The notes: generated from the letters alone by a model not told the origin. Positions 1 to 18,767 are shown, counted from the stretch's first letter. The stretch: DNA of 64,000 nucleotides from a virus (IMGVR_UViG_3300029267_006021); one strand, 5' to 3'. Translations and numbers: made by a program.

Positions 1-240
1 GTAAGTTATTAAAGCATTTGTCCCTTCTTCTGATTCTATTGCTTCTTGAACTTCATCTGAAGTTACTTTTTTGCCTTCTGAAACATAATCGTCTTCCTGA
101 TAGAGGAAATACCACTGATTGCCTCTTTTTACATATGTATGTGTACAAATAGGAGTATCAATAACAACCCAAGTTGTTTTGATTGGATCAAAATTTGCTA
201 GCTGTGCAGCAAGTTTTTTAAGTGCCTTGATTGTATTCAT
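1..240 (-). CDS. Hypothetical protein with LKKLA leader, 3'-truncated by the window edge
   Basis: Not in the ORF track. ATG at 240 is open to base 1 (MNTIKALKKLAAQLANFDPIKTTW...). A late-promoter variant lies at 276-288. Confidence 0.75.
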   Translation of the reverse strand, partial: MNTIKALKKLAAQLANFDPIKTTWVVIDTPICTHTYVKRGNQWYFLYQEDDYVSEGKKVTSDEVQEAIESEEGTNALITY

Positions 241-275
241 TTAGGGACCCTTAAAATTACTCATTTAAAATAAGT

Positions 276-288
276 ATTAATGAATTAT
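276..288 (-). promoter_or_regulatory. Putative phage late promoter variant (ATAATTCATTAAT)
   Basis: One mismatch to ATANTNNACTAAT, about 36 bp upstream of the ATG at 240. Confidence 0.5.
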
Positions 289-304
289 TAAAATAAAATC
301 ATGA

Positions 305-493
305 CTACACAGTTTCTTCTGGACCTATTTCTCTTTGCTCTTGAAAACCGCAATCAAAACATTGAATACCTAAAATCAAACAACCAAAGGATCTTTTGTT
401 ATCCCTGGTTCCTTTATACTCTCGAAAACGTATTGTGCTAACAAGTTTTGAATTGCATTTTGAACACTTAAACCCTTCTTTCTGTTTGGGCAT
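305..493 (-). CDS. Small zinc-ribbon protein
   Basis: CSKC...CFDCG pairs. Confidence 0.6.
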   Translation of the reverse strand: MPKQKEGFKCSKCNSKLVSTIRFREYKGTRDNKRSFGCLILGIQCFDCGFQEQREIGPEETV

Positions 494-495
494 CT

Positions 496-951
496 TTAAC
501 TTCCTTTGAAAGGTCGAATTGTTTTTGTTTGAGCGCGTGTTTTCTTCAGGCGTCTGCGTGCTCGAATTTCTTTGCGAATCATCATTAGACGGCCAAGTAT
601 CTGATTACAAGGAGCACACATCGTTCTGGTGTTATCTAAGTCACGTGAACCCATTTTTGCTTTGGGTTTGATATGGTCAACCGTGAATTCTATTAGTTTC
701 GCTGTCCAACTATCTACTCCATAGAGAATAAGAACATGGCCTTCATTTTCTTTGTGGTAGTTTAAGGAAAAGTAGGGCGCTTTCAAACCACACAGATGAC
801 ATTGTGTACCATTCTGCTTGAAAGATCTGAGTCTAAAAGAATTTCCTTTAACCTGTATGTTACCGATTTTAATCCATCTCACAGGGACCTGATCTAAGAT
901 CTCTTCGATCTCGTGATCTGAAATGTGTACTAGGTATTTTTTCTTGTTCAT
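496..951 (-). CDS. HNH endonuclease
   Basis: CHLCG...TVDHIKPKAKMG...N...MCAPCN. Confidence 0.85.
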   Translation of the reverse strand: MNKKKYLVHISDHEIEEILDQVPVRWIKIGNIQVKGNSFRLRSFKQNGTQCHLCGLKAPYFSLNYHKENEGHVLILYGVDSWTAKLIEFTVDHIKPKAKMGSRDLDNTRTMCAPCNQILGRLMMIRKEIRARRRLKKTRAQTKTIRPFKGS

Positions 952-955
952 ATAA

Positions 956-1028
956 CTCGGGAGGAAGGGTTTGAACCTTCAACCTTCCGGGTCAAAGCCG
1001 GACGTTCTGCCAATTGAACTACTCCCGA
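956..1028 (-). tRNA. tRNA-Gln (UUG)
   Basis: Acceptor TCGGGAG/CTCCCGA, anticodon arm TCCGG-CTTTGAC-CCGGA, T arm GAAGG-TTCAAAC-CCTTC. No encoded CCA. Confidence 0.93.
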
Positions 1029-1090
1029 TCATCTTCTTTAGGAATCTCGCGATATTTAAGATTAAGTTAGGACACCAGACTTACGCCTCG

Positions 1091-1230
1091 TCACCTAGGC
1101 AACTTCAAGAGAAGTTTGCTTTTGTTTGTTAGCAACATAAGCTACTAACTCACTCATCTTAACCCCACTTCTTTCAAAGTCAGGTAGCCTTATTCTCTTT
1201 GGGTTAGACGTAAACCCACTAGACAGTCGA
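1091..1230 (-). ncRNA. Putative omegaRNA scaffold overlapping the tnpB 3' end (copy 1)
   Basis: The last ~140 nt are strongly conserved at DNA level with 6440-6570, including the AACTTC-TCTT-GAAGTT hairpin and terminal TAGGTGAC. Boundaries approximate. Confidence 0.55.
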
Positions 1231-2471
1231 GCAATGGCAAATTTGCCATTGCTTCCCTGCTTACTTTTGATTGCTATGTTAGCAGCCCCATTCACATCAG
1301 CATTGATTAGAGTGCCTTTAGAGGTCCCGAACAAACCTCTATGAATACGTTTACCTAGATAAGTAGTGTGTTTCTCTGGGTACTCTTCATCTAAGAAACT
1401 ACACTTGGATGTGTAAGACTCATCTTGAAAAATTAGTTCTAGACCATAGATTTGGCACTTGTGTTTAAGTTTTTGTTTGAAATTGGCGAATGGTATTTGT
1501 ACAAAGTTTTGATTGTTGATCTTACCTAGTTTGATACTTTGTTTGATCTCACTAGACCAGTCACCAATGATGATAGTGCCTATATCCTTTTGAGCACAAT
1601 ACTTGATAATATAGGAGACCATTTGATTTAGATAGTTATTAATTTGATTCTTACGTTGTTGTGTTAGTCTGATTAGTCTTTTTGAACTCTTTTCTAGTTC
1701 AACTCCTTTCTTCTTTAAAGAGTTCTTGTGCTTGATGTAAACAGTCTTTAACTTTGCGGTTTGTTTGTTCCACCATCTGTTGATTGATTTGAGTTCTCGC
1801 CCATCCAGAATAAACGAACGTCCAGATTGGCAATCCAAACAAGTGGCAAAGTTATCAAGACCACAATCTATACTTAAGAGATTTGATTTATCTAAGTTAA
1901 GATTAGTTTTTGATTCGTCATGTTCGTAAGTGATCGCTAGTTCAAAGTATTGAGCGTTGTTGTGTTGAATTATAGCTACTTGTTTGATTTTGCCTTTAAA
2001 TTGTTTTTTAAATGAAATCTTGATCTTGTAGTTAGTTTTTAGGTTATTTTCTCTACAGACTTGTTTTGATGGGTGAAAATAGAAATAAGTATCTGTAAAA
2101 TTGAAACTCTTCGGTGACAGATAGATATGATAATAACCATCTTTTGGAAGATAATGTGGCATTTTGACTTTACAGTGATAGTCACCTGATTTTTGTTTCT
2201 TCTTTAAAGCGAAGAATGATCTAAAAGCCCAATCTATTCGAAGTTGGATGTGTGCTGCAACATCTGATTTCATCCTTTGTGTTTCTGGTAGTTGTTTTAC
2301 TAAATTATGGCGAGCGTACATACCTAAGAACTCACCATTATTAAAGAAATGTTGTCGCGTTATATAAAGAACTGAATTATAAAAATTTTTAGAATCTTTA
2401 CACATTTGTTTAAGAAATAGATAGTCCTGTTTTGATAATTTCCTAATCTGAATTTTTTGTGTAAGTATCAT
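1095..2471 (-). CDS. tnpB: RNA-guided endonuclease TnpB (IS200/IS605/IS607-type)
   Basis: RuvC-I SIDCGLDN, DESYTSKCS, RuvC-III NADVNGAANI. No tnpA nearby. Confidence 0.92.
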   Translation of the reverse strand: MILTQKIQIRKLSKQDYLFLKQMCKDSKNFYNSVLYITRQHFFNNGEFLGMYARHNLVKQLPETQRMKSDVAAHIQLRIDWAFRSFFALKKKQKSGDYHCKVKMPHYLPKDGYYHIYLSPKSFNFTDTYFYFHPSKQVCRENNLKTNYKIKISFKKQFKGKIKQVAIIQHNNAQYFELAITYEHDESKTNLNLDKSNLLSIDCGLDNFATCLDCQSGRSFILDGRELKSINRWWNKQTAKLKTVYIKHKNSLKKKGVELEKSSKRLIRLTQQRKNQINNYLNQMVSYIIKYCAQKDIGTIIIGDWSSEIKQSIKLGKINNQNFVQIPFANFKQKLKHKCQIYGLELIFQDESYTSKCSFLDEEYPEKHTTYLGKRIHRGLFGTSKGTLINADVNGAANIAIKSKQGSNGKFAIARLSSGFTSNPKRIRLPDFERSGVKMSELVAYVANKQKQTSLEVA

Positions 2472-2501
2472 ATCGATTATAATCGATAATTAGTAGAGTA
2501 T
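2471..2501 (-). promoter_or_regulatory. Late-promoter motif ATACTCTACTAAT (2489-2501) plus 18-bp perfect palindrome TATCGATTATAATCGATA (2471-2488)
   Basis: Read directly between tRNA-Glu and the tnpB start codon. Confidence 0.65.
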
Positions 2502-2504
2502 TAA

Positions 2505-2577
2505 TGCTCCAGGAGGGATTCGAACCCTCTTCTTCGGATCGAAAGTCCGAGATTTTATCCGATTAAACTACTGGAGC
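2505..2577 (-). tRNA. tRNA-Glu (UUC)
   Basis: Acceptor GCTCCAG/CTGGAGC, anticodon arm TCGGA-CTTTCGA-TCCGA, T arm GAGGG-TTCGAAT-CCCTC. Confidence 0.9.
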
Positions 2578-2579
2578 AT

Positions 2580-2936
2580 TCATAAAAATGGCTCCTCATC
2601 ATCTAACTCTTCTATTTGTATTCCGCCTTCTCTTAACCATTTGGCAACTATGTGTCTGTGACAAAATTTATCCTTACCTTCATAACACAACAAAATAGCA
2701 TCATTTCCTAGATCTTTAAGTACTTTTGTCGGCACAAAATTACGTTTTTTTATACATTCTAAATAGAGTTTTGTATACTCTTGTTCATTAATTTTACCTG
2801 ATTTTAGATCTTTGACTAACTGCATTGGTGGCCCAAGAAGAGGATAGTACTTACCTTTAAACCATTTTGGTTTTCCAGAAGTAATCGCGACTGCATTTGG
2901 ATTATTTTTACTTTTAGCGAAGTATGATGTTTTCAT
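2580..2936 (-). CDS. DUF488 family protein
   Basis: MKTSYF start and LLCYE..FCHRHIVAKWL signature. Confidence 0.85.
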   Translation of the reverse strand: MKTSYFAKSKNNPNAVAITSGKPKWFKGKYYPLLGPPMQLVKDLKSGKINEQEYTKLYLECIKKRNFVPTKVLKDLGNDAILLCYEGKDKFCHRHIVAKWLREGGIQIEELDDEEPFL

Positions 2937-3145
2937 TTGATCTCGATTTCTACGACTCTTTTAATTGCTTTAATTTCTAATTCTTCAGCCCGAAAAACAC
3001 GGTAATTTTCTAGCGTCCGGCTCTTGTCTTGCTCTAAACGATTTTTAATCCATCTGGAAGCAGCCTCTACATCCCCAAATTCTTTGATACCTTCACCATC
3101 ATCATCCGCATAACCATCTGAATAATGAAGCAGGATGGTACTCAT
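2933..3145 (-). CDS. Hypothetical protein
   Basis: AAGGA RBS, upstream TGTATAAT -10 box near 3170, ATGA-coupled to DUF488. Confidence 0.7.
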   Translation of the reverse strand: MSTILLHYSDGYADDDGEGIKEFGDVEAASRWIKNRLEQDKSRTLENYRVFRAEELEIKAIKRVVEIEIK

Positions 3146-3193
3146 TTTATTTCCTTAAAAAGATGTTGATTATACAATTATTATTTTTACATT

Positions 3194-3225
3194 AAACAAG
3201 ACCAGTAAACAAACTGGTCTTGTTT
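3194..3225. terminator. Intrinsic terminator hairpin
   Basis: AAACAAGACCAGT-aaacaa-ACTGGTCTTGTTT just downstream of the 3243..3671 gene. Confidence 0.75.
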
Positions 3226-3242
3226 GAATTTTATGTTATTAT

Positions 3243-3671
3243 TTAGAGTAGTGAATCCGAAATGATTTGCAATTTGTCTATAATATCTTGAGCGCCTTCC
3301 TTCGGATGGATAAACCACTCTCCCGATTTAAGTTTAGCGATGAGATCAGTTAAAGTTATATTTTTGGTGTTATCGTTCATGTCAGCAAACTCTATCTCTA
3401 TACTCTCACCATTGTCAGTATATCCATAAGCATCTGTATCAAAATGAGCAAAATATCCAGATTCGTAAATAGCCTGATTTGGATCACCCTCCTCTTTTAA
3501 CGCTTCTTGAAAATCGAGATCCTCAAATGTGCCTTTATCAACAAAACTTATGCCTGCAGGAGAACCGATTAGTTCTGCCAGATCGTTAATTAAGTCTGCT
3601 TTTTTTAGTATTTTAAGATCGTTAGCTAACTTTTTGAGTTGCTCTACGTCTGCTTTTCTGATTGGGTTCAT
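3243..3671 (-). CDS. Acidic protein with LKKLA leader (putative internal virion protein)
   Basis: MNPIRKADVEQLKKLANDL. TAGTTTGGAG stop/RBS junction. Confidence 0.7.
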   Translation of the reverse strand: MNPIRKADVEQLKKLANDLKILKKADLINDLAELIGSPAGISFVDKGTFEDLDFQEALKEEGDPNQAIYESGYFAHFDTDAYGYTDNGESIEIEFADMNDNTKNITLTDLIAKLKSGEWFIHPKEGAQDIIDKLQIISDSLL

Positions 3672-3689
3672 TTTTTTTCTCCAAACTAA

Positions 3690-4505
3690 CTACTCATGGG
3701 GACTTTCAGTAAAAATTTCTGATTCGCGTTCTTTATTAAAAGTTATTATTGGTAAACTTAATTCTGATCTACGTATCTTATTAATCTCTCGAGATAAATT
3801 AGGAGAAACTTTATCCCAAAAATCTGCAGGTGTTTTAGCATTAAACTTTGCATTTAATGCTTCCCAACTAGTCTCCTCCATATTAATATACTCAAGTAAA
3901 GTCTCTTTATTATGATGCACCAAGCCTAAAACCCTATCAATTGCCGAGATCTTTGCGTCTAAATTTGAACCAAGCAGTTTGGGCTTATTTTGTTTAAACA
4001 TATCCCAGGATCTTTTCCATTGTCCTTTATTTTGTTGACCTCTAAAAAAAGGCTTTACATCATCTCTCTTATCCAAAACTTCATATAATTCATCGATTTC
4101 ACTAAACGAAAGATCCAAACTATTCAAATCCAAATCACCACAACCTACAAATTTACTAAGGTCAACATCTTCGGGTTGTTCATAAAGAGGCTTTTCAGAA
4201 TTATAGAGCCTAACTCCAGCTTCTTTGTAGAGTTTTTGGTATAATGAAACACTGCCCCCTAGATCTTCCCAATACTCTAAACTTGGAACTCCATCTCCAC
4301 CTATAAAAGATCTAACTGGATGATGTTGAAAAGTATATAAAAAAACGTCATAAATCTTAAGTGCAAAAGAATTAATTTCAGGCTCGAAGTATTCTTGTGT
4401 AAGGCTGCCTGAGATGGCATAAAAATCATAGATATCCTGATTGGTAATTTTCCCACTAGACACCAAAAGATTCGCTAAACGATAAAGAAGAGAAATTGTT
4501 TTCAT
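3690..4505 (-). CDS. Hypothetical protein (leader LYRLANLL)
   Basis: Long ORF. ATG at 4505 with GGAAGGGA RBS preferred over the TTG at 4517. Confidence 0.75.
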   Translation of the reverse strand: MKTISLLYRLANLLVSSGKITNQDIYDFYAISGSLTQEYFEPEINSFALKIYDVFLYTFQHHPVRSFIGGDGVPSLEYWEDLGGSVSLYQKLYKEAGVRLYNSEKPLYEQPEDVDLSKFVGCGDLDLNSLDLSFSEIDELYEVLDKRDDVKPFFRGQQNKGQWKRSWDMFKQNKPKLLGSNLDAKISAIDRVLGLVHHNKETLLEYINMEETSWEALNAKFNAKTPADFWDKVSPNLSREINKIRRSELSLPIITFNKERESEIFTESPHE

Positions 4506-4518
4506 TTTCCCTTCCAAA

Positions 4519-4683
4519 CTATCTTAAGCGGCGTCCAAGACCCCTACCCTGGCCAAGACCTCTCCCATAACCATAACCCCGACCTGGACCATAACTAGGG
4601 CCTCTCCTTCTAACGCATGGGCCTAAACCACGTCCTGTTCCTGGGCCTGTTCCTCGCGGGCCTGTACGATCTCTTGCTGGCAT
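4519..4683 (-). CDS. DUF5320-like Gly/Arg-rich small protein (54 aa)
   Basis: Not in the ORF track. MPARDRTGPRGTGPGTGRGLGPCVRRRGPSYGPGRGYGYGRGLGQGRGLGRRLR with AGGAGG RBS. Confidence 0.8.
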   Translation of the reverse strand: MPARDRTGPRGTGPGTGRGLGPCVRRRGPSYGPGRGYGYGRGLGQGRGLGRRLR

Positions 4684-4717
4684 TTTGACCTCCTATTTAA
4701 GTGTTTAATAAAAGATT

Positions 4718-4730
4718 ATTAGTAAATTAT
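4718..4730 (-). promoter_or_regulatory. Putative phage late promoter ATAATTTACTAAT
   Basis: Consensus copy about 35 bp upstream of the DUF5320-like ATG. Confidence 0.65.
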
Positions 4731-4868
4731 AGAATGAAAGGTATTTCTAAGTTTTGTTTTGCTTTCTCTAAAGCTTGGTCTAGATTCTTTGATTTCCAGG
4801 GCATTGTATTGCCGAAAGCCTCTCTTAACTTTGATTTTATAAACTTTTCGTTTTCATGAGGTTTTGAA
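4727..4868 (-). pseudogene. Displaced C-terminal fragment of the 6557..8554 endonuclease gene
   Basis: Start-less frame SKPHENEKFIKSKLREAF...EIPFIL* that joins in frame to VVRYD when the tnpB element is removed. Confidence 0.6.
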
Positions 4869-5100
4869 CCTCTTGTGAGTCTCCTTGGTATCCTTAACCT
4901 TTGTCATTGAATTCTCCTCCAAAAATAGGAAACATTACAAAACTAACTTTTCTATTATACAAAATGAATACTTAAAAGTTTATTTATTTATCACTTTTTT
5001 ATTAATTAAGACGGGCTTCAGAAATTTCTAAGATCTGGAAATTAGTTTCTACTTTAATTATACAAAATGAATACTAAAAGTTAATATAATTAACGTTCTA

Positions 5101-5113
5101 ATAATTTACTAAT
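5101..5113 (+). promoter_or_regulatory. Putative phage late promoter ATAATTTACTAAT
   Basis: Perfect consensus copy about 38 bp upstream of the tnpB ATG at 5152. Confidence 0.65.
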
Positions 5114-5151
5114 TGGTTCTTATTTATGAATTAATAAAAGAGATAAAAATA

Positions 5152-6564
5152 ATGTATCTTGCACTTAAATCACAGATCAGAAAACTTAGTAAACAAGACT
5201 ACCTCATCATCAAACAAATGTGTAGAGATTCAAAAGATCTCTACAACAAATCTTTATACGAAGTCAGACAACACTTCTTTAAAACAAGTGGTCATCTCAC
5301 CTACTTCTCAAGATACAAACAGATGAAAAATCTTTCGTCTGTTAAGAGAATGAAGTCAGACTTTAGCATGCATGTACAACAAAGAGTTGATTTTGCCTTC
5401 AAATCATTCCTTGCTCTTGATAAAATGGCAAGAAATGGTGAGTATGATAAGGAAAAAGTAAATATACCACACTATCTACCCAAAGATGGTTATTATAACT
5501 TGTTTATGTCTCCGAAAAGTATTGGTTTTGATAGTGAGTATTTCTATTTTCACCCTACAAGTTATATCTGTAAAGATCTTCTATTGTCTCAGAAATACAA
5601 GATCAAAATACCTTTCACCAAAAAAATAGAAGGTATAATCAAAGAAGTTCAGATCATACCTAAAAATAATGCTCGTTACTTCGAACTCTTAATCACCTAT
5701 GAATATGATGAATCTAAAACTAATCTTAAACTAAATAAAGATAATCTTCTAAGTATCGATCTTGGGCTAGATAACCTTGCCACTTGTCTTGATCTACAGT
5801 CTGGGCGATCATTTATTCTGGATGGTCGAAAACTCAAATCACTTAACAGATGGTGGAACAAAGAGGTGGCAAGGTTAAGAGGCATCTATGAAAAACAAAA
5901 GAATAGTCAAAAGAAGAAAGGAGAGAAAGTTCAGAAAAGTTCTAAACAACTTGATCGGTTGAGTAAGTGGAGAAAGGGCCAGATAGGTAATGCTCTCAAC
6001 CAAATGGTGGCTCATGTTATCAAGTACTGTGCAAGTCATAACATAGGTACTATTGTCATAGGTGACTGGAAAGGCATTAAAGATGGTATTCAGATGAGAC
6101 ATGAAACTAAACAAAACTTTGTCCAGTTACCCTACAACTTGTTCAAACAGAAACTCTACTCCAAATGTCAAATGTTTGGACTTGGCTGTGAGTTTCAAGA
6201 AGAGAGTTATACTTCTAAGTGTAGCTTTCTTGAGCAAGAAAAGATCTGTAAACACAAGAAATATATGGGCAAGAGAATTTATAGAGGCTTGTTCAGAACC
6301 TCTAAAGGCATTCACATCAACTCAGATGTGAATGGTGCAGGTAACATAGGTGTCAAGTTCTTGTTAAATCAAAAACAAAGTCAAGATCTAAAACAACGTA
6401 TGCGAGGAGATCGGGTCATTGATCCGATTGAACTGAGTAGTGGGCTTGCGCTTAGCCCAAAGAGAATAAGGCTACCTGACTTTGAAAAGAGCCAGGTTAA
6501 GATGAGTGAGTTAGTGGCTTTGGTTGCTAATGAACAAAAGCAAACTTCTCTTGAAGTTACTTAG
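5152..6564 (+). CDS. tnpB: RNA-guided endonuclease TnpB
   Basis: SIDLGLDN, EESYTSKCS, NSDVNGAGNI. Clear paralog of 1095..2471. Start set at MYLALK by alignment to copy 1. Confidence 0.92.
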   Translation: MYLALKSQIRKLSKQDYLIIKQMCRDSKDLYNKSLYEVRQHFFKTSGHLTYFSRYKQMKNLSSVKRMKSDFSMHVQQRVDFAFKSFLALDKMARNGEYDKEKVNIPHYLPKDGYYNLFMSPKSIGFDSEYFYFHPTSYICKDLLLSQKYKIKIPFTKKIEGIIKEVQIIPKNNARYFELLITYEYDESKTNLKLNKDNLLSIDLGLDNLATCLDLQSGRSFILDGRKLKSLNRWWNKEVARLRGIYEKQKNSQKKKGEKVQKSSKQLDRLSKWRKGQIGNALNQMVAHVIKYCASHNIGTIVIGDWKGIKDGIQMRHETKQNFVQLPYNLFKQKLYSKCQMFGLGCEFQEESYTSKCSFLEQEKICKHKKYMGKRIYRGLFRTSKGIHINSDVNGAGNIGVKFLLNQKQSQDLKQRMRGDRVIDPIELSSGLALSPKRIRLPDFEKSQVKMSELVALVANEQKQTSLEVT

Positions 6565-8554
6565 GTGACATGGCGTCATATCTAACAACTAAAAAGAAGT
6601 AATCTCCATTGATTGCCAATTCTCTTTTAAGATAGTCTCTTTTCTGTGCCTCTTTAAAATGAATAATGTTTTTATGTATGTGATTTGGGAAGACAAAATG
6701 GTGATAGCCGTGATACTCTACAATTAAATTTAATGTTTGAAGATAACCATCATACAGAAACTTGCGACCTGTTTCTGGATTTCGAATTTCATTAAAAGAT
6801 TTTTCCTCTTTATAGGGCTGTCCAGTTATTTTAGAGATTAGTTCGAGGATCTGATGTTGTGTGACAAGATAACGTTTAGGTTTCAAACCTAAATGCTCCA
6901 TTTCCCTTCTAATAATTGGGCAGCAGAGGTTTAAACCTTTAATTGCCTTCGGAACGAAAACATCTCCCTTCTCATCGAGATAGGGCTTGAAATCTTCAAG
7001 ATTGAGGGTGATTAGTTTACTTGGAGGTCCTACCCAATTAGGGTCTGATTTCGTTTCAATTATTTTTTGAGTTCTCTTATATATGCGTAGATCATCAAAT
7101 TTAGTTAAACCCTTGCACCAGGAAGTTTGGCCTTGACGACCTTTAGAGGTTTTCTCTATGCGTGGATCAGTCTCTTTTGTTAATCCTTTAGACCAGCCAC
7201 CACTTTTCTTTTGTTTCTTTCGTATTTTAGATGAGACAAAATAAGAACCAGGGAACATTTTGCAGTAGTCTATTGTGGACATTTTATGTGTTTTAGTGAT
7301 ATGTGTGGCTAAGAATTGGCTTTTAAAATTACAATCGGATAGTTTACAATAGAGGTTACCATCTTTATCTTCCTCTCTAGAAATGCAATCATAACAAATG
7401 TTACCTAAAAGAAAATTTGGATCTTTTTGTTCTTGGCAAATAATGCAAAAATTAGCCTCTTCACATAAAATCTGTTGATCTGCTCTACGTTGTTTCACCT
7501 CCTCTAAACGATGATCAATTATTGCACAATTAGGCAGCTTTCGTTCGATATAGTGTTTAGAATGGTACAGAGATTCATAATCTTCTGTGGTTAAATTATG
7601 GTTGAAGCGTAGGTGATCTTTAAGATTGTTTTTCGTTCTAAATGGAAATCCTGATTTAGTTGTACATCCTGGAACCTTGCATTCTACATAATCTATGCCT
7701 TCTTTTTTATCTTTCCATTCTGCAAGATATTCCTCTTTAGCTATTACTTTTTTGCACTGTGAGCATAATAAAAAATGCTGAGTAGATGATTGATAAAGAG
7801 AAATCTCAAAAGACTTCTGACATCTTTCGCAAATGCCAGTCTTTGTTTTATCGTAGAAATCTGGGGGTCTGGAAGCACTGTCCTTCTGTATAGACTCTAT
7901 GCGTTTTTCTTCCGTTTTTATAGCGATTGTTGGCGAATTATACTTAGAGGTGTAGTCTGAAATTGATATCTTGTGTACACTGGGTAAGTGGCGTCGTAGA
8001 GTCGTCATTCGGTATTCCGAAAAGTGCTTGCCTTCCCTCTTGCATATCTGACACTCTACATAGTCTATGTTAATGCGTTTATCTTCCCATTTCTTAGATT
8101 CTTCTTGATTAAAATAATCTAAATGGGCTTGATCATTCTTTTTAAAAGCCATTCTTTTGATATGATTTGTGAGACCCTTAACATCTCGCACTCTAAGATT
8201 ACATACTGGGCAGAATATCTGTTCTTGTGATTTGTAATCTCTCTTTGATTTACATTTTGGGCATAGAACTTGTTTGAATCTTTTCATCTGAGATAAAGCA
8301 GATACAGTAGTAGAGAAAGTTTGATTACAGATCTGGCAGATGGTTGTTGTTTGTTTAGATGTTTTTTTCTTGCTGTGTTTCTTTCTCCTGGCATCTACAT
8401 CTTCCTTTGGGTATTCTTTTTTAAAGAGAGATGTGACTACACTTATTTCGAGATCAAATTGTTCGGCTACTTTTCCTGCTGAGAGATCTGAGCGAAATAA
8501 ATCTTTGATCGTCTGGTATTCTTCTTTGGTGAGACGGTTAATTGAGTAGCGCAT
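6557..8554 (-). CDS. Multi-zinc-finger protein with C-terminal PD-(D/E)XK-type endonuclease (free-standing homing endonuclease-like), 3' end interrupted
   Basis: Many CxxC/C2H2 fingers, WSKGLTKETDPRI NUMOD-like repeats, LYDGY...IVEYHGYHH...RDYLK nuclease motif. Confidence 0.75.
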   Translation of the reverse strand: MRYSINRLTKEEYQTIKDLFRSDLSAGKVAEQFDLEISVVTSLFKKEYPKEDVDARRKKHSKKKTSKQTTTICQICNQTFSTTVSALSQMKRFKQVLCPKCKSKRDYKSQEQIFCPVCNLRVRDVKGLTNHIKRMAFKKNDQAHLDYFNQEESKKWEDKRINIDYVECQICKREGKHFSEYRMTTLRRHLPSVHKISISDYTSKYNSPTIAIKTEEKRIESIQKDSASRPPDFYDKTKTGICERCQKSFEISLYQSSTQHFLLCSQCKKVIAKEEYLAEWKDKKEGIDYVECKVPGCTTKSGFPFRTKNNLKDHLRFNHNLTTEDYESLYHSKHYIERKLPNCAIIDHRLEEVKQRRADQQILCEEANFCIICQEQKDPNFLLGNICYDCISREEDKDGNLYCKLSDCNFKSQFLATHITKTHKMSTIDYCKMFPGSYFVSSKIRKKQKKSGGWSKGLTKETDPRIEKTSKGRQGQTSWCKGLTKFDDLRIYKRTQKIIETKSDPNWVGPPSKLITLNLEDFKPYLDEKGDVFVPKAIKGLNLCCPIIRREMEHLGLKPKRYLVTQHQILELISKITGQPYKEEKSFNEIRNPETGRKFLYDGYLQTLNLIVEYHGYHHFVFPNHIHKNIIHFKEAQKRDYLKRELAINGDYFFLVVRYDAMSPK

Positions 8555-8571
8555 GTTGACTCCTAATTTAA

Positions 8572-8607
8572 ATTATACAAGAAGCAGTCGACGGGATCAA
8601 GGGATTT
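8572..8607 (-). promoter_or_regulatory. Sigma70-type promoter TTGATC-N17-TATAAT
   Basis: -35 at 8595-8600, -10 at 8572-8577. AAATCCCTTGATC is shared with 32037-32049. Confidence 0.75.
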
Positions 8608-8667
8608 GTTAGGTTCAGCGGTTCTAGAGGCGGTTAGCGGAGCTGAACTGAAGAAAATTAGCTCAAA

Positions 8668-8707
8668 AAAATAAAGGTTTAAATTAAAGAATTTAAACCT
8701 TTATTTA
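8668..8707 (-). terminator. Intrinsic terminator after the tail sheath gene
   Basis: AAATAAAGGTTTAAATT...AATTTAAACCTTTATTT inverted repeat with a T-run on the minus strand. Confidence 0.75.
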
Positions 8708-8738
8708 ATATCTTTTAATTTTATTTAGTTCAGGTTCA

Positions 8739-11504
8739 CTATAATTTAGTTCTTAGTTGGAACTGACAAATGATCCATAAAAGAGGAAATACTGGCTGAT
8801 AAAAAGCCTCGACATTACATATCGTAGGATCACTCGCATCCACCTCGGCACTCACCCCCTTGTAATCACTTATAATCTCAGCCTGAACAAGCATCTTTAA
8901 TGTATTTGCGAGAGCTGTCTCAACATCACCTAAAACACTACTCAGGAATTTCACACCAATAAATCTCTGCAAGTTAAATCTTGCAACCTGCTGTACATAA
9001 TCAGCAATTGCTGTAACTGATGGAGTCCTCGTTAACACATTGTCTATCTTTGTCGTAAGTGATTGTCTGATAACTAAATTCGGATCGAGATCTTCGACCA
9101 CTGTCAAACCAGAAATGGCTGTCTGGTTCTGCTCAACAGAATCAAGTTGTCTTGTTAGTCTCTTAAACCCAAGCAGATACTTATTGGTCATTGGGGTTGC
9201 TACATCATACTGTGGAGATACATTTAAGCCAGCAAATGCAGCAGACATAAATGTACTATCAATCGCATACTCTTGTTCAGATCCATATTCATCAATTAAA
9301 CCAATTACTGCTCCATCTGGATAGATACCCCACATTCTTGAAGAATTGGTATTACGAGCAATTACTTGAGCCTCATTAGGAGTTGTTCCTAGCGAAAATC
9401 CAAAGAGGCCCACTCGCTCTGCTCTATAACGAATAGAACTCATCTGCTCAACATGAGCCTTCAGAGCAACACGAACTGAATCATCTGTGGTCAAGGGTAA
9501 TACGAAGTTCGGAAGATAAATTCTTTGTATAGGTTTTTCTAAATTTGTTAATGCGGTTATATAACTGGCTGGTGCTGCCTGGTTCTCACCAGTCTCTTTA
9601 AGAACTTGACAAAGGCCTAAAGCGATTGCACCATTCTGGAAGGCAAGATAAGCGGCGAGAGTCAATTCATTTGTTGTACTAAGGGGCCCAAAATCAGCTT
9701 CTACATCCTTAAATCGAGTGTAAATCTTACAAGAGTAATCTGTTTTAGCGTATTCATAAGTTACATAATAAAAATCACCGATACCAGGTTCATTGCCCGA
9801 TTTGTCGTAAGTACAAATTGTTGCAGTGTCTCCCACATTTATACCAGTCGTATTTATAACAATTGTCCAGAGTCCTGGAATCGACAAAATCGGTTGATTG
9901 CTTGTTGTGTGATTTGCGACTGTCTGGAATTGTAAGGTGTCACCTGTCTGATAAGTAACAGTGGAACCCTGTCTTATTGTAAATCTAACCCCAGTCGTTC
10001 CATCAATATAAGTCTTTTCCAACTCTCCTGTTCCTGAAGACCCACTTGGAGCAAGAGATGAAGTTACGCTATAAGTCGTAGACGAAGTAAAGGTTACTGT
10101 AACTATTTCTAAAGGAGAATATCCAGGTATTGTCTGTAAATCTGGGAATGATGTTGGGATTGCGCCAAGACCTGTTGGCCAAATGATGCCTTCTGTTGCG
10201 AAGTCTGGATCTGTAACATGATCTTGAGAACTGTTGTGGCGTAAGTAATAAACTGCCCCATTATCACGGCTTGTAATTTTATATGTACCAACGCCTGTAA
10301 CTCCTGGTGTAATTACTTCTAAATAATAGCAATCATCTGCCAAAATGTTATAGAAATAAGTTGCATAAACTTTATGCCCTACTGCTGGGGCATCTTTTGT
10401 CCAAACCTTTTTGGCGCTACCATCAAGCTTTTTGACTGTTACTTCACCAGCATTAAAAGCATTAACTGCGCTCGTACCAACAAATACTTTTATTTTGGAA
10501 GTATCATCAGTTACTAAATCTCTACCGCCTCCGTCAACAGGTTCGCGTGAAAGCGTAAATTCTTTAGTGCTTCCATCTCCCACACCCACTGGGTCCATAT
10601 AAACTACATTGTCAATTAAAGTGCGAGAGACTTGTGTGTCATCAAAATATTCATAACCTGGCGTATGTGTTCCAGCGCTAATAACAGCGGCTGCCCCCCA
10701 CTGTATTGTATCGTCTACAAGAACAAAATCTGTATCTTCAATAAAATCTGTTGAATCTGGAGAATAGCCCACTCTAATTATATCCGTGACATTTTTGTTG
10801 AATAAATCATCTCCAGTATCTTGATATCTATTATAGTAGTAGGTAACGAGTACTGTGGCGCCCGCTGCCGGAGCAGAACTCAATTGAAATGTTCCAGATG
10901 TACCTGCGATCGAACTAGGTGTAACTGTACTTCCATTAACCTTTACTGTAATATCTGCGACCGAATTTGTTATAATTCCACCACCTGTTCCATCAACAAT
11001 TGGTACATAATTTGTTTTAAAAACCTTGTTCGTTCCATCAGCCTGAGATGAAAGATCTTCATCTGCTATCTGAGTATCTGTTCTATTATAATAATAAGTT
11101 ATAAGAACGGTTGCGTCTGCTGCAGGTATTGAATCTAAATAAACAACTCCTGTAGCCCCCTGAACTGCTGAAACCCCAACAGGCTCATTATCTACAAGAA
11201 CAGTTACATCTCTTGGGTTTGTAGTAGTTTGTCCTTGTCCTGAACCTGTTACAATTGGAAAATTAGCAACAGTAAAACTTCGATTTGTTCCATCTAACTG
11301 GCTAGAAACATCTTCCTTTGAAATCAAATTATCAGCAATAGAAGAAGAGCCTCTAAAGAGTTCGTCAGTTGCTTCAAGAGTCTCTTTTCCAACACCAATA
11401 AATGCCGGGAATCTAATGCCCCCAGTAAAACTCGGCACAGTTTGATCAGTAAGGGTTCTAGTATATGGACCTGGAGGCACGTATGATGTAAAAGGACCGA
11501 CCAC
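8739..11504 (-). CDS. Contractile tail sheath protein with inserted beta-rich domains
   Basis: N-terminal YVPPGPYTRT, RFKDVEADFG, C-terminal sheath domain (HVEQMS...ERVG, IRQSLTT, FYQPVFPLLWI). GTG start with AGGAGG RBS. Confidence 0.9.
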   Translation of the reverse strand: MVGPFTSYVPPGPYTRTLTDQTVPSFTGGIRFPAFIGVGKETLEATDELFRGSSSIADNLISKEDVSSQLDGTNRSFTVANFPIVTGSGQGQTTTNPRDVTVLVDNEPVGVSAVQGATGVVYLDSIPAADATVLITYYYNRTDTQIADEDLSSQADGTNKVFKTNYVPIVDGTGGGIITNSVADITVKVNGSTVTPSSIAGTSGTFQLSSAPAAGATVLVTYYYNRYQDTGDDLFNKNVTDIIRVGYSPDSTDFIEDTDFVLVDDTIQWGAAAVISAGTHTPGYEYFDDTQVSRTLIDNVVYMDPVGVGDGSTKEFTLSREPVDGGGRDLVTDDTSKIKVFVGTSAVNAFNAGEVTVKKLDGSAKKVWTKDAPAVGHKVYATYFYNILADDCYYLEVITPGVTGVGTYKITSRDNGAVYYLRHNSSQDHVTDPDFATEGIIWPTGLGAIPTSFPDLQTIPGYSPLEIVTVTFTSSTTYSVTSSLAPSGSSGTGELEKTYIDGTTGVRFTIRQGSTVTYQTGDTLQFQTVANHTTSNQPILSIPGLWTIVINTTGINVGDTATICTYDKSGNEPGIGDFYYVTYEYAKTDYSCKIYTRFKDVEADFGPLSTTNELTLAAYLAFQNGAIALGLCQVLKETGENQAAPASYITALTNLEKPIQRIYLPNFVLPLTTDDSVRVALKAHVEQMSSIRYRAERVGLFGFSLGTTPNEAQVIARNTNSSRMWGIYPDGAVIGLIDEYGSEQEYAIDSTFMSAAFAGLNVSPQYDVATPMTNKYLLGFKRLTRQLDSVEQNQTAISGLTVVEDLDPNLVIRQSLTTKIDNVLTRTPSVTAIADYVQQVARFNLQRFIGVKFLSSVLGDVETALANTLKMLVQAEIISDYKGVSAEVDASDPTICNVEAFYQPVFPLLWIICQFQLRTKL

Positions 11505-11563: not shown

Positions 11564-11576
11564 ATTAGTAGATTAT
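11564..11576 (-). promoter_or_regulatory. Putative phage late promoter ATAATCTACTAAT
   Basis: About 60 bp upstream of the sheath start. Confidence 0.65.
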
Positions 11577-12044: not shown

Positions 12045-13505
12045 TTAAACCAAACGCTCGAAATTTCTATAACCCACACGCATGACTGGAACTTCATTTG
12101 GTAATATTGCTTCTAGCTGAAGAGACGAAACTTCATCTCCTCCGACCTCCCGAACATTCTCTTCACCTCCTAAAACATAATCAAATCTTCTGAAGGCAAA
12201 AGGTAGGGGCTTATGTAATTCCCAATCAGTCTCTAAAGATAGAGTTAAAGAAGACATAAAATACATGCTACCTTCGGTTTCATTATAGACTTCCTCAGAT
12301 TCACCTCCATGTGAGATATCCTTGACTACAATACCTTCACGATCGAGCCTTGGTTTTAAACCTTCCCATAAAACAGAAAGTGTAACATCTGCTAATTCTT
12401 CTCTCTGTAATGGGTCTCGAGCATAAACATTTATTGATAGAGAAAGGTCCCATTTGCCTCCGAAAGCCTGAGCTACTTGCTCTCGATTATTACGAATAAT
12501 AACTGCTTGTTTATCATCTTTTTCGACACCCCTCTCAAAAGCAAGAACAACACCTTTTATTGCCTGGTTATTACTTCTATCCTGTATTAATGGATAAGGG
12601 CCTCGTGAAGCTCCTGGGTATTTGTAACTCACAGTTAAAATTGTGCCTTCAGGCATACTCGGATTGATTAAAGTTAAAATTCCAGTAGTTGTATCTACTG
12701 TATATTCTGTACCCTCTATCATTTCAATTCGCTGATCACGCCAAAGATCTATAGGCACAGACAATACTGGGAAATGATCAAGTTGGAAAGTTGTCTCAGA
12801 TCCATCATAATCTAGAGTCAGAATTTCATCTTCTACCACATACAATGGATCAATTACAAATTCATTCTTACCTGTAACTTCAATATAATAGATACCTTGA
12901 GGTTCAAGAGTTCTATAATAATACATGACTTTAACTTCATCTGAAATAGCAGGAGCCATCTCTAAAGTTATTCGTCCAGTAATTGGATTTATTTCTTCAG
13001 GAAGAACAGGAACAGCGTTTACTGTAACACGTACAGATAAAGACTTAGTGGCATATTCTCCTGTTCTTGGGTCTACAATTGGGGTATTACTAACCTGAAT
13101 AATCCGTACAGTTCCATCCATTTGTGCCGAGACATCTTCTGTAACTTTAGCCTGTATATTTTCAACATCTTCACGAATCCATTCTATTGAGCGTCCCTTA
13201 TAATTTGCGACACGAGCTAAAAATACATGACTAATAACTGTACCTATAAAATTATCAGCTGCCAGCTTAATTAAATCGCCACTTATATTGTTGACTACAA
13301 TACCAAAACTTGGACGCTCATCAAAAGCATATTTATTTTGAATAAACTGCTCGATCTCCTTATAGGTCGGATGTCCCCGAAAAACTGTTTTCAATTCATC
13401 TATAATACGAAATTTAATAGCCTTAGTGAGACGACTCATATTAATTTTAGCCGTCTCACTGGGCGGAGTCGGCGGAGAAGTTGTAGCAGGAGTAGGCTGT
13501 GTCAT
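12045..13505 (-). CDS. Putative tail completion / sheath terminator protein
   Basis: Upstream of the sheath. SINVYARDPLQREELAD motif. Shares the EDVSxQxDG domain with the sheath. Confidence 0.6.
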   Translation of the reverse strand: MTQPTPATTSPPTPPSETAKINMSRLTKAIKFRIIDELKTVFRGHPTYKEIEQFIQNKYAFDERPSFGIVVNNISGDLIKLAADNFIGTVISHVFLARVANYKGRSIEWIREDVENIQAKVTEDVSAQMDGTVRIIQVSNTPIVDPRTGEYATKSLSVRVTVNAVPVLPEEINPITGRITLEMAPAISDEVKVMYYYRTLEPQGIYYIEVTGKNEFVIDPLYVVEDEILTLDYDGSETTFQLDHFPVLSVPIDLWRDQRIEMIEGTEYTVDTTTGILTLINPSMPEGTILTVSYKYPGASRGPYPLIQDRSNNQAIKGVVLAFERGVEKDDKQAVIIRNNREQVAQAFGGKWDLSLSINVYARDPLQREELADVTLSVLWEGLKPRLDREGIVVKDISHGGESEEVYNETEGSMYFMSSLTLSLETDWELHKPLPFAFRRFDYVLGGEENVREVGGDEVSSLQLEAILPNEVPVMRVGYRNFERLV

Positions 13506-15312: not shown

Positions 15313-15362
15313 ACCACAAAGAATAACTAATTTAGAGAGTATAAGTGTATTATTGAAATGGA

Positions 15363-17664: not shown

Positions 17665-18462
17665 TTAACCACTAGACCGAACGAAATATTTACCCCGTAG
17701 AGATTCAGCAGCGGCTTCAAGTTCTGGATTATTTACACTACGAGCAAAATTGGCAATCTCCTCTCGCATGCTATTCAGCGTTTGTGAAACATAACCTCTA
17801 CTAATACCGAGGTCTTCTTGAATTTGTTGCCCAGTTTTACCCTCAAGAAGCATATCAAAAACTTTGCCGAATCGTTCTTTAGTTTCATATAGATAATTAC
17901 GAATATCCTTAACTAGTGTATTATATTCCGATTCAGTTTCAGCTGTGTCTCTGATATCTATAAGTAAATCAGCTGGGATACCGGCTCCTTCTTCACTCTC
18001 TTCTGTAATAATTGGAGCTGTCCGTTCATATTGTTTTTGTAAACGTTTTTTATAGTCAAAGATACGACTCTTGGTATTTGTAATAATCATATTATGTAAT
18101 TTACCCCGATCAGGATCAAAGCGATCAAGCCAATCAGGCAATGATGCCAAAACTTCAGCCTGAACTTCTTCTACATCCATACCTCTAAGGCCATATTTTC
18201 GAATAGTTCCAGAAACTAAACCCGTAATACTAAATCCCTCGCCGTCTGGAAGAGTCTCTACAGGTATACCTTTTTCTTTGACCTGTTCTATAAACCATTT
18301 ATCAATTGCTTTTAAAGTATCATCACAAAGCTTCTTAAAATAAGCAAAATGTTCTGAACTAACTTTTAAAGAAGACAGAGTCTTTAAAGCTTTGAGCAAA
18401 AAATTTAGAGCCATTCTTTGAGTTTCTGAAACTTTAGTTACCATTTTTGGAATCTCCTTCAA
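17665..18462 (-). CDS. Sigma70-family-like RNA polymerase sigma factor
   Basis: Region-2-like DVEEVQAE...LDRFDPDRGKL...RIFDYKKR and region-4 HTH GKTGQQIQEDLGISRGYVSQTL. Confidence 0.7.
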   Translation of the reverse strand: MKEIPKMVTKVSETQRMALNFLLKALKTLSSLKVSSEHFAYFKKLCDDTLKAIDKWFIEQVKEKGIPVETLPDGEGFSITGLVSGTIRKYGLRGMDVEEVQAEVLASLPDWLDRFDPDRGKLHNMIITNTKSRIFDYKKRLQKQYERTAPIITEESEEGAGIPADLLIDIRDTAETESEYNTLVKDIRNYLYETKERFGKVFDMLLEGKTGQQIQEDLGISRGYVSQTLNSMREEIANFARSVNNPELEAAAESLRGKYFVRSSG

Positions 18463-18754: not shown

Positions 18755-18767
18755 ATTAGTGGATTAT
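18755..18767 (-). promoter_or_regulatory. Putative phage late promoter ATAATCCACTAAT
   Basis: About 34 bp upstream of 18721. Confidence 0.65.

Follow-up and report, generated by a model that had tools for sequence, protein, structure and literature searches.

TnpB is the ancestor of Cas12 and, to our knowledge, the only natural role demonstrated for it is keeping IS elements in bacterial chromosomes after their excision by TnpA. In the IS1341 group, the tnpB-only members of the IS200/IS605 family, a lone tnpB is accompanied by an omegaRNA that runs over the 3' end of the gene to the right end of the element, and the guide is derived from the flank. The TnpB of ISDra2 and IS605 shows the RuvC D-E-D residues and a guide that matches the donor joint, and it is predicted to bias inheritance through break-induced recombination, with the sister chromosome as target once TnpA has excised the element (Meers et al., PMC10055086; Karvelis et al., PMC8612924). 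TnpB-driven homing has been described (PMC10055086), TnpB makes omegaRNA by processing its own message (PMC10278001), and "non-restorative homing" is a category listed in a review in which homing into co-infecting phages appears as a concept (PMC13565253). TnpB-family genes whose transcription was measured in infection include the tnpB of cyanophage A-1(L) (bioRxiv 10.64898/2026.02.14.705889), a recent pick-up because it is identical to host IS copies, and Cas12r of the Thermus Lalka phages, a highly expressed middle gene with a CRISPR array (bioRxiv 10.64898/2026.04.20.719267). The free-standing homing endonucleases Seg and Mob of T4-like phages offer a functional analogy, as their genes have lodged within or between conserved genes of the phage (SegB in the tRNA region).

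We analyzed two tnpB cassettes, W1 and W2, that lie in a 64-kb stretch of viral DNA, called here the window, and hold the only tnpB copies of their type in it:

1083..2503, minus strand: cassette W1, from a TAATA block to the right end (...GGCGT), by family alignment
1095..2471, minus strand: tnpB of W1, 458 aa (Pfam), with RuvC D202/E351/D392 present
5099..6576, plus strand: cassette W2, from a TAATA block to the right end (...GGCGT), by family alignment
5152..6564, plus strand: tnpB of W2, 470 aa (Pfam), with RuvC D-E-D present

Both products, which are 60% identical, matched the Pfam OrfB_IS605 (RuvC) and Cas12f1-like TNB families above the curated cut-offs (65.8 and 40.1 bits for W1, 62.9 and 28.9 for W2). 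This bears out the original prediction that both ORFs are TnpB; the second copy starts at the ATG at 5152 and not at the TTG at 5113. The residues D202, E351 and D392 (W1 numbering) are invariant in 22 aligned homologues, W2 included. The profile matched solved structures of Cas12f/TnpB type, with an alignment to Cas12f structure 8j3r spanning the RuvC motifs; the W1 sequence alone matched no solved structure at E 1e-5, in keeping with its distance in protein sequence from the ISDra2/IS605 enzymes. The CxxC...CxxC zinc ribbon of TNB, judged by eye on the alignment, is absent from W1 and W2, where one Cys is found (SKCSF); the one-Cys variant is common to the whole clade and to archaeal relatives, and still scores above the Pfam TNB cut-off. 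W1 and W2 are, on these sequence features, intact TnpB nucleases with predicted activity. Identity with TldR, a nuclease-dead regulator, was rejected because the catalytic triad is intact, and identity with a Type V CRISPR-Cas (Cas12) system because no adjacent repeat array was found within positions 1-9000. No Shine-Dalgarno site precedes tnpB in W1 or in the related L005 and L008 copies.

The relatives of these genes form a small group. Only seven distinct relatives were found at 56% identity or above, all of them on phage-like contigs and all with the promoter-like box described below; among 5.8 billion proteins, only P0002-P0007 exceeded 45% identity to W1. Small ORFs, tRNA arrays and GIY-YIG or DNA polymerase genes are the neighbours of P0002-P0007, and the flanks of L002 and of the TnpB-free L097 are syntenic with the tRNA region of the window phage. 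The nearest cellular relatives (archaea, cyanobacteria, Firmicutes) are at most 45% identical. Gene-body dN/dS is 0.06-0.18 with saturated dS, and the dS of 3.2 between W1 and W2 indicates that they are not a recent duplication. The clade is therefore phage-only in its observed distribution and, by these ratios, under strong purifying selection, with W1 and W2 apparently long-diverged members of a small tnpB-omegaRNA lineage in related large tailed phages. We found no filled and empty allele pair within one phage population; judged by contig counts, both cassettes are present on this phage's contigs.

Downstream, the two cassettes show the RNA component and the flank expected of a TnpB system:

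1083..1267, minus strand: omegaRNA scaffold of W1, about 185 nt (RNAalifold), sharing 173 nt with the 3' end of the ORF
6394..6576, plus strand: omegaRNA scaffold of W2 (RNAalifold, 3' conservation)
1063..1082, minus strand: predicted guide of W1, AAGTCTGGTGTCCTAACTTA, the first 20 nt past the family conservation
6577..6596, plus strand: guide predicted for W2, CATATCTAACAACTAAAAAG, in antisense orientation to the zinc-finger gene at codons ~654-660

RNAalifold on seven sequences gave 59 pairs, 16 of them with compensatory changes. Of the scaffold cells, 96.8% were paired against 32-47% in slid controls, and none of 500 shuffles reached the observed values. Over the last 62 codons, where the omegaRNA overlaps the gene, dS drops five- to ten-fold, and the last 145 nt of W1 and W2 are 85.5% identical, much more alike than the remainder of the two genes. 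A conserved 3' stretch of about 140 nt ending in TAGGTGAC had been proposed, and the conservation is a real omegaRNA scaffold at the level of predicted structure; the proposed end point did not hold, as six of the seven family members remain conserved for another 7 nt, up to GGCGT, which places the right ends at 1083 (W1) and 6576 (W2). The guides first proposed are consequently offset by 7 nt, and the predicted ones start with AAGTCTGGTGTCC (1082 downwards) and CATATCTAACAAC (6577 onwards). That of W1 is phage DNA lying past the right end, ahead of tRNA-Gln. Each guide is unique in the window, with no second match, and in IMG/VR neither the W1 guide (23-nt version) nor that of W2 had an exact match; in the related alleles that were found, 4-8 of 20-22 positions deviate from the guides, with no intact target among them. 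Neither a CRISPR-like array nor an extra stand-alone omegaRNA was present in the ~93 kb of genome examined. The sequence xTAA precedes all cassettes and TCAT adjoins the guide match in both intact alleles. If the TAM is TAA-like, the W2 guide would be without a TAM in the L011-type allele and homing would not be expected there.

What sets the cassettes apart from the IS1341 group, with which they share the lone tnpB, the omegaRNA placement and the flank-derived guide, is among other features their 5' end. Exact copies of the 13-nt box ATAnTnTACTAAT stand before both genes, 17 nt from the ATG in W1:

2489..2503, minus strand: promoter-like box of W1, TAATACTCTACTAAT, an exact motif match, invariant in 7/7 clade members
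5099..5113, plus strand: promoter-like box of W2, TAATAATTTACTAAT, an exact motif match 38 nt before the ATG
11564..11576, minus strand: box before the tail sheath gene at 8739-11504 (PHROG 2839, E 9e-26)
4718..4730, minus strand: box before a DUF5320-family gene at 4519-4683 (precomputed Pfam match), in the same place in L011 (3735-3747)
17665..18462, minus strand: phage sigma factor gene, candidate reader of the box (PHROG 1740 RNA polymerase sigma factor, E 1.8e-9)

Both predicted motif sites, 2489-2501 on the minus strand and 5101-5113 on the plus strand, were confirmed. At one mismatch or less the window holds 15 matches where 3.5 are expected, a count reached in none of 100 shuffles, and on our reading most of the matches listed are intergenic and oriented toward a nearby start codon. 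The same 13-mer precedes at least nine unrelated phage genes and an orthologous gene in another phage. The box would then be a signal of the phage itself, promoter-like in character and with putative promoter activity and timing. A box also stands upstream of a gene for a beta-helix, tailspike-like protein, which is a lead only.

Within the clade the box is kept in all seven members, in at least five different contexts and in spite of saturated dS, while the sequence of the spacer between box and ATG is variable. Cellular copies are without it: none of 80 cellular homologues had a box within 100 nt upstream of tnpB, so that its occurrence in bacterial copies independently of the phage, which the original prediction had named as a test, was not seen. 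The box is also missing from two TnpB-free alleles of related phages, L011 at the W2 locus and L097 at the L002 locus, and for this reason it appears to travel with the cassette; it is, on this comparative evidence, part of the cassette and selected. Moreover, ATTATTTACTAAT stands 17 nt ahead of the ATG of a third tnpB in this genome, a gene only 24% identical to W1 whose IS605 element also encodes a Y1 TnpA; the site falls inside the element, in the spacer between tnpA and tnpB. The box was missing from both of the non-phage relatives examined, one of them 65% identical and the other cyanobacterial. The third, unrelated tnpB thus seems to have gained it by convergence. The view that the TnpBs are phage-adapted and wired to a phage promoter is upheld by these observations, but "late" is less secure, since the label leans mainly on the sheath, the one structural gene with a firm annotation, and a one-mismatch variant (18755-18767) also lies upstream of the operon holding the sigma factor gene. 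Nor need the box be the sole promoter of W1, because this cassette holds a sigma-70-like TTAATA-17-TATAAT in its left end, ending 4 nt before the ATG, and lies, in the same direction, within an operon of tRNAs and small genes that follows an early-type TTGTATAAT at 3169-3177. W1 transcription could come by read-through from the early-type promoter or from the sigma-70-like site. For W2, scanning the same strand upstream of the start gave no sigma-70-like site.

The insertion loci were compared with those of related phages:

2504..2578, minus strand: tRNA-Glu(TTC) (ARAGORN, Rfam), ending 0 nt before the W1 cassette
956..1028, minus strand: tRNA-Gln(TTG) (ARAGORN, Rfam), 54 nt after the W1 right end
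6557..8554, minus strand: zinc-finger gene truncated by W2, its last five codons and stop read from the W2 right end
4727..4861, minus strand: orphaned zinc-finger 3' end, 44 codons and stop, whose frame-2 translation matches the P0122 C-terminus
4862..5098, no strand: extra 237 nt left of W2, absent from the uninterrupted L011 allele, which came in with W2

Besides the tRNA and zinc-finger genes, an HNH gene and a DUF488 gene are neighbours of the cassettes. W1 resembles the L001 and L002 copies from TTAATA, the first bases past the 3' end of the tRNA, up to GGCGT and no further. The zinc-finger homologue P0122 (65% identical, 705 aa, no TnpB nearby) runs 45 aa further than the truncated gene, and the orphaned 3' end sits across the W2 block with no in-frame start codon. 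To the right of W2, homology to the L011 zinc-finger gene resumes within 2-3 nt of 6576. To its left, the extra 237 nt carry two minus-strand early-type TTGTATAAT promoters (4954-4962 and 5057-5065, a 103-nt direct repeat), and a Shine-Dalgarno sequence with a 17-codon mini-ORF lies at 4854-4907 (minus strand) in the W2 left block. At the other locus, L002 compared with L097 misses 233 nt on the left (two tRNAs and 15 codons). Hence a clean insertion 3' of a short target, without gain or loss of flank, was observed at neither locus, the comparators L011 and L097 being 65-85% relatives and not isogenic. In the window phage, the counterpart of the L002 target locus has the sequence TATAA|GAAGCA..., which resembles an empty donor joint. 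A tRNA adjoins both W1 and L001, and co-transfer of such neighbouring markers is possible.

In accordance with the original prediction, no tnpA is adjacent to W1 or W2. The genome, however, does encode a Y1 TnpA, recovered by the genome search that the prediction had proposed (which covered about half of the 194-kb contig); it belongs to the different IS605 element mentioned above, ~12 kb past the window end, whose ends are unlike those of W1 and W2. The left and right ends share no k-mer of 8 nt or longer in any of the seven cassettes, hence there are no paired hairpins, whereas the third element, as a positive control, shares the 21-nt hairpin CCTTGGGTCTyGTACCCAAGG at both ends. The W1 and W2 cassettes apparently no longer look like TnpA substrates, and new sites would for that reason be reached by recombination and not by peel-and-paste transposition.

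With a box and a scaffold each, the cassettes look like selfish nuclease units under the expression programme of the phage. We consider it probable that they are spread by recombination in the manner of homing endonucleases and run by that programme, and we infer from the sequences the promoter, the omegaRNA processing, the TAM, the cleavage and the homing. Each cassette would consist of a TAATA 5' region with the box, the RuvC nuclease gene and the ~185-nt scaffold ending in GGCGT, the adjoining 16-20 nt of phage DNA serving as guide. In infection, phage machinery, probably the RNA polymerase of the host directed by the phage's sigma factor, would initiate at the box, and a single transcript would yield TnpB and, once processed, the omegaRNA. 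The ribonucleoprotein would cut a TAM-flanked match to the right flank of the cassette, namely the same locus as it exists, free of the cassette, in a co-infecting relative; repair of the break by phage recombination from the cassette-bearing genome would copy the cassette and neighbouring markers into the relative. Overall this would be the behaviour of a free-standing phage homing endonuclease, but RNA-guided. The role would be that of ISDra2/IS605 TnpB with a different target, a co-infecting phage genome, in cassettes without a cognate TnpA. The setting agrees circumstantially with homing: a location rich in tRNA and homing endonuclease genes (the tRNA cluster also has HNH and GIY-YIG genes), presence or absence among related phages, and untidy boundaries with possible marker co-transfer; the location and the boundaries are as in T4 Seg/Mob. 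Recognition would nevertheless be by RNA and not by protein, and the likeness is one of function and not of membership. Unlike the A-1(L) tnpB and Cas12r, the W1/W2 clade is old, phage-restricted, devoid of an array and provided with a phage-type promoter box.

Other readings were weighed against this one. It is unlikely, in our view, that the cassettes are ordinary IS1341-type passengers, in which the 5' block is a transposon left end (a TnpA recognition and cleavage sequence including the TAM) that resembles the phage motif by chance and expression comes from read-through or a host-type promoter. The tnpB-only state is the norm of that family, with an upstream-ORF tnpA in 0/10 sampled cellular relatives, a Y1 TnpA is present in the genome, the 5' block begins where similarity between copies begins, as a left end would, and W1 has both its sigma-70-like site and its early-type operon. 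Chance resemblance, however, agrees poorly with a 13-mer that recurs before so many unrelated phage genes and, in the third element, sits in an internal spacer away from the ends; the cassettes lack matching left and right hairpins, those of the genome's TnpA element being quite different, and W2 opposes all its neighbours in orientation, with no sigma-70-like site to drive it. Mobilization by a cognate TnpA acting in trans, encoded by the host or in phage DNA beyond that examined, would make W1 and W2 true transposons whose untidy junctions are secondary rearrangements. The partial coverage of the contig leaves room for such an enzyme, and both the TAA before all cassettes, as for a conserved target or TAM, and the joint-like L002 target locus would suit it. 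We regard it as quite unlikely, given the absence of paired end hairpins, the ~235 nt gained or lost on the left at both loci with a TnpB-free comparator, and a sole observed TnpA that belongs to a different element family.

The original prediction also offered these proteins as domesticated weapons, and we weighed a role as weapons or regulators acting on host or rival DNA and not on a cassette-free allele. Phage TnpB derivatives with such roles exist, as Cas12r (bioRxiv 10.64898/2026.04.20.719267) and TldR (PMC10705468), and strong purifying selection on old residents of phage genomes would fit. Yet the weapon reading found no support, because the single guide of each cassette is adjoining phage DNA that matches only its own flank in the window and nothing exactly in IMG/VR; the absence of arrays and stand-alone omegaRNAs in the ~93 kb examined and a D-E-D triad intact unlike that of TldR also speak against these roles, which we judge very unlikely. 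Homing by recombination remains our preferred reading, and we extend it only tentatively. It is possible that this lineage dropped TnpA transposition and became a phage-specific, RNA-guided counterpart of homing endonucleases with its own phage promoter (probably late and phage-sigma-dependent), passing by break-induced recombination from one co-infecting relative to another and taking neighbouring markers, for instance a tRNA, along. Promoter capture might then be a general route of adaptation for OMEGA elements in lytic phages, as an unrelated IS605 element of the same phage would have undergone it independently. In the same vein, the in-frame TAA of the window phage, where the L002 cassette abuts its target, could be a trace of conflict, whether as a mutation for TAM escape or as an empty joint.

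These cassettes provide a defined system that combines a phage-restricted clade under strong purifying selection, a predicted guide and target locus with cassette-free alleles in related phages, and a sequence signal linking cassette expression to the phage programme. Their compact nucleases of 458-470 aa and well-defined 185-nt scaffold make them ordinary candidates for study by biochemistry. Were homing between co-infecting phages to prove true, non-restorative homing, so far a proposed category, would be demonstrated, and the cassettes would represent an intermediate step from transposon nuclease to domesticated system, in which transposon ends were lost and promoters of the host element captured. 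RNA-guided nucleases would then count, alongside protein homing endonucleases, among the drivers of mosaicism in phages.

The two tnpB-omegaRNA cassettes, W1 (1083..2503, minus strand) and W2 (5099..6576, plus strand), form part of a 194-kb contig (35% G+C; ENA sample ERZ27256778) from a tailed phage that is divergent. This phage has genes for a tail sheath, a sigma factor and tRNAs, as well as a large block of glycan genes. A Megablast comparison of 20 kb of the window revealed no DNA-level similarity to GenBank phages. The tRNA region of this phage is syntenic with L002, a phage-like contig bearing a related cassette, and with its TnpB-free relative L097. The HNH and GIY-YIG genes near W1 form a cluster of selfish nuclease genes (L010 is the same phage's DNA before the window start).

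1095-2471, minus strand: tnpB of W1, 458 aa
5152-6564, plus strand: tnpB of W2, 470 aa
496-951, minus strand, and L010:16271-16549: HNH and GIY-YIG endonuclease genes of W1's tRNA-rich region

No further TnpB copies were found in the window. Both proteins contain OrfB_IS605 and Cas12f1-like TNB domains, and the ATG start of W2 lies 39 nt inside a TTG-started ORF. When 20 relatives were aligned with them, the RuvC residues D202, E351 and D392 showed no variation. Solved Cas12f/TnpB-type structures were matched by a profile search, the profile being needed because phmmer found no PDB match to W1 alone. The dN/dS values of 0.06-0.18 over the gene body indicate that W1/W2-type proteins are under purifying selection. 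The two proteins are 60% identical; a dS of 3.2 ruled out a recent duplication as their origin and marks them, by this measure, as old paralogues. Among 5.8 billion clustered proteins, six clusters exceeded 45% identity to W1, namely W2's own and five from other contigs (59-81% identical), whereas the next-best matches (38-45%) were archaeal, Elusimicrobiota and other cellular TnpBs. The contigs of all close relatives are phage-like and feature DNA polymerase A, genes for NAD salvage, GIY-YIG genes, tRNA arrays and many small ORFs. Additional clade members were found neither in IMG/VR with the W1 TnpB as query nor in JGI metagenomes with the clade alignment. The broader cellular family is likewise tnpB-only where sampled.

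The original prediction placed a late promoter motif just upstream of each tnpB, and exact copies of the 13-mer ATAnTnTACTAAT are indeed present at 2489-2501 (minus strand) and 5101-5113 (plus strand). In its 15-nt version this box ends 17 nt (W1) and 38 nt (W2) before the ATG. The window holds 15 matches at no more than one mismatch versus 3.5 expected, and in our reading most of them are intergenic and point at a gene start. The genes behind the box include the tail sheath gene and, as a lead only, that of a protein with a beta-helix, tailspike-like signature; further genes considered here are:

17665-18462, minus strand: sigma factor gene (PHROG 1740), in an operon preceded by a one-mismatch box at 18755-18767
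20527-21951, minus strand, and 35536-36960, plus strand: two 474-aa ORFs

The position before the tail sheath gene favors the late timing that we infer, but, given the variant before the sigma operon, late genes may not be the only ones that the box serves. Most box-preceded genes had no PHROG annotation. An Atlas search with a 159-aa protein returned nothing usable, and with a 474-aa one it gave a sub-threshold beta-helix, tailspike-like signature, a lead only; the leads for the first 474-aa ORF are beta-helix and pectate-lyase-like (tailspike-type). A second upstream element, TAATAATCTTCTTAT, is common to both 474-aa ORFs, and the leaders that come after it resemble each other; the two 5' regions may therefore be paralogous.

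Four lines of evidence from sequence comparison indicate that the box belongs to the cassette; the fourth, from an unrelated IS605 element, is given further below. The form TAATAnTnTACTAAT stands 15-40 nt before the ATG in all seven family members, and the bases separating it from the ATG vary. The settings are unrelated and number at least five: the cassette follows a tRNA or a 77-aa gene, or lies back to back with one of three different divergent genes. Boxes without a TnpB link start with AAATA, CTATA or TTATA instead. Occurrence of the motif in bacterial copies of the element, which the original prediction had named as counting against it, was not observed: it was absent within 100 nt upstream of tnpB in 80 of the 80 cellular homologues fetched with flanks, and only four matches at no more than one mismatch occurred elsewhere in 429 kb of their DNA. 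Alternatively, the cassettes could have inserted beside promoters already present at the target. This was rejected because neither TnpB-free allele (L011, L097) shows a box at the corresponding place and the right flank of W2 is antisense coding DNA. L011 keeps a box before its orthologue of the gene at 4519-4683, so that the box is a phage signal conserved independently of the cassettes. Concerning expression, W1 could also be transcribed by read-through from an early-type promoter at 3169-3177, or from an internal TTAATA-17-TATAAT that ends 4 nt before its ATG.

The last 145 nt of W1 and W2 are 85.5% identical, well above the remainder of the gene pair, and the predicted 3' conservation common to both copies is thus real. 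However, it does not stop at TAGGTGAC, as had been proposed, and extends 7 nt further to GGCGT in 6/7 family members, which places the right ends at 1083 and 6576. The 20-mers originally put forward as guides include these 7 nt of scaffold; the guides would begin AAGTCTGG... and CATATCTA.... In an alignment of the final ~185 nt of seven distinct elements, RNAalifold predicted 59 pairs, and compensatory double changes occur in 16 of these. Pairing on the named structure was found in 96.8% of cells versus 32-47% with the partners slid, and none of 500 shuffles reached the observed values. Independently of this, the dS drops to 0.18-0.8 in the last 62 codons versus >1.4 elsewhere, a synonymous collapse that is the signature of RNA constraint over coding sequence.

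The W1 and W2 guides had no other match in the window and no exact match in IMG/VR, and related alleles mismatch them at several positions. The sequences offer two candidates for the TAM (the motif adjoining the target): xTAA stands before all of the cassettes, but TCAT adjoins the guide match in the two intact alleles. A role as weapons against host or competitor DNA had also been suggested. Since in these searches the guides match only their own flank, no repeat array was found within 1-9000, and blastn and nhmmer searches of the window, L010, L095 and L096 yielded no stand-alone omegaRNA that would supply other guides, this reading is without support.

W2 cuts a zinc-finger gene whose counterpart in L011 is intact (705 aa vs 665 aa, 65% protein identity); the 44 codons that the cut gene lacks are orphaned beyond W2, at 4727-4861. 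A scan of IMG/VR with the zinc-finger protein gave no match. W2 came with an extra 237 nt, in which two early-type TTGTATAAT promoters point leftward and which also hold a Shine-Dalgarno site and an ORF stub of 17 codons. In the interval 4854-5098, the two TTGTATAAT copies lie in a 103-nt direct repeat, the Shine-Dalgarno site is strong, and all signals, including the 17-codon ORF (MTKVKDTKETHKRFKTS), are directed toward the orphaned gene end and not toward W2. This DNA looks like what is left of the 5' end of a divergent neighbour that once adjoined the cassette and moved with it, and the cassettes of L005, L008 and L009 have divergent neighbours of just that kind. In L002 the cassette stands in place of 233 nt present in L097, and the DNA lost comprises two tRNAs and 15 codons. 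An in-frame interruption of the upstream 77-aa gene was rejected, as its homologue P0126 has the same end point and the gene is therefore complete. The orthologue of the L002 target in the window phage is a 54-aa gene (L010 ~15201-15340, ~2.8 kb before the window start). It contains a TAA in frame, in precisely the codon that the right end of the L002 cassette adjoins. With a slash at the joint, the alleles read ...ATCATATAA/GAAGCAACC (L010), ...GTTATTCAT/GAAGCAATC (L097) and ...GGCGT/GAAGCAATT (L002). For the L010 TAA (TATAA/GAAGCAACC), conceivable explanations are an empty joint whose TAM is of the TAA type, a TAM-escape mutation, or chance (~1 in 54).

The tRNA abutting the cassette of contig L001 (L001:9894-9968) has the anticodon CTA, of amber suppressor type (ARAGORN label Pyl). 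It and the window tRNA-Glu (2504-2578) are reciprocal best matches (75%) with identical spacing and otherwise unrelated flanks; the adjoining tRNA may travel along with the cassette. A tmRNA is predicted in L001 as well, at 13366-13711. Directly before the W1 ATG (2476-2491, minus strand) lies a perfect 16-nt palindrome, ATCGATTATAATCGAT, with TATAAT at its centre, and L005 and L008 have palindromes of different sequence but conserved structure at the same place. The left and right end regions had not even an 8-mer in common in 7/7 cassettes, whose hairpins are unlike those of the IS605 element described below. Given the lack of matching end hairpins and the untidy left sides of the two loci that have a TnpB-free comparator, the cassettes read as spread by recombination and not by peel-and-paste.

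The original prediction regarded the tnpB genes as lacking a tnpA. The phage does encode a Y1 TnpA, but in a separate element in its DNA beyond the window end (L096):

L096:5386-6966, ~window 76046-77626: complete IS605 element, ~12 kb beyond the window end

Its genes for a Y1 TnpA (133 aa, PF01797) and a TnpB (375 aa) are divergently oriented, and this TnpB shares only 24% identity with W1. The same 21-nt hairpin occurs at both ends, as expected of a TnpA substrate. The 51-nt tnpA-tnpB spacer holds ATTATTTACTAAT (12/13) 17 nt before the tnpB ATG, overlapping an opposite-strand early-type TTGTATAAT that faces tnpA; no box was found in the closest relative (65%, L098) or in the cyanobacterial relative L099. 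All three tnpB genes of the phage, from two unrelated lineages, thus carry the box, whereas the non-phage relatives examined do not. The closest cellular relatives of the IS605 element are from filamentous cyanobacteria (50-55%), a hint as to the host. The intergenic stretch 27258-27320 shows a left-end-like TTTATGAACTCAACACAAAATA, the exact hairpin CCTTGGGTCTCGTACCCAAGG and a right-end-like TAGTTGACT; judged by these matches it is a miniature derivative of the element, which suggests that the IS605 TnpA has been active within this phage genome.

Phage-borne TnpB, tnpB-only elements, omegaRNA and TnpB homing are already known, and transcription of TnpB-like genes during phage infection has been reported (bioRxiv 10.64898/2026.02.14.705889, 10.64898/2026.04.20.719267). 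One mRNA can give both TnpB and omegaRNA (PMC10278001). TnpB homing by repair from element-bearing DNA (PMC10055086) has a repair step like the one proposed here between co-infecting phages, a category of homing listed in a review (PMC13565253). In full-text searches of the literature we found no description of a phage-restricted TnpB clade without transposon-end hairpins, of a TnpB clade carrying its resident phage's promoter box, or of convergent gain of the box by an unrelated IS605. The behaviour proposed for the cassettes is like that of the T4 Seg and Mob endonucleases. SegB sits among the T4 tRNA genes, and W1 likewise lies in a tRNA cluster, adjoining an HNH gene. In the best-supported model, the phage programme would transcribe the cassette from the box, a single mRNA would yield TnpB and omegaRNA, TnpB would cut DNA that matches the right flank of the cassette itself and is flanked by a TAM, and the break would be repaired from the cassette-bearing genome, so that the cassettes would home between co-infecting phages.
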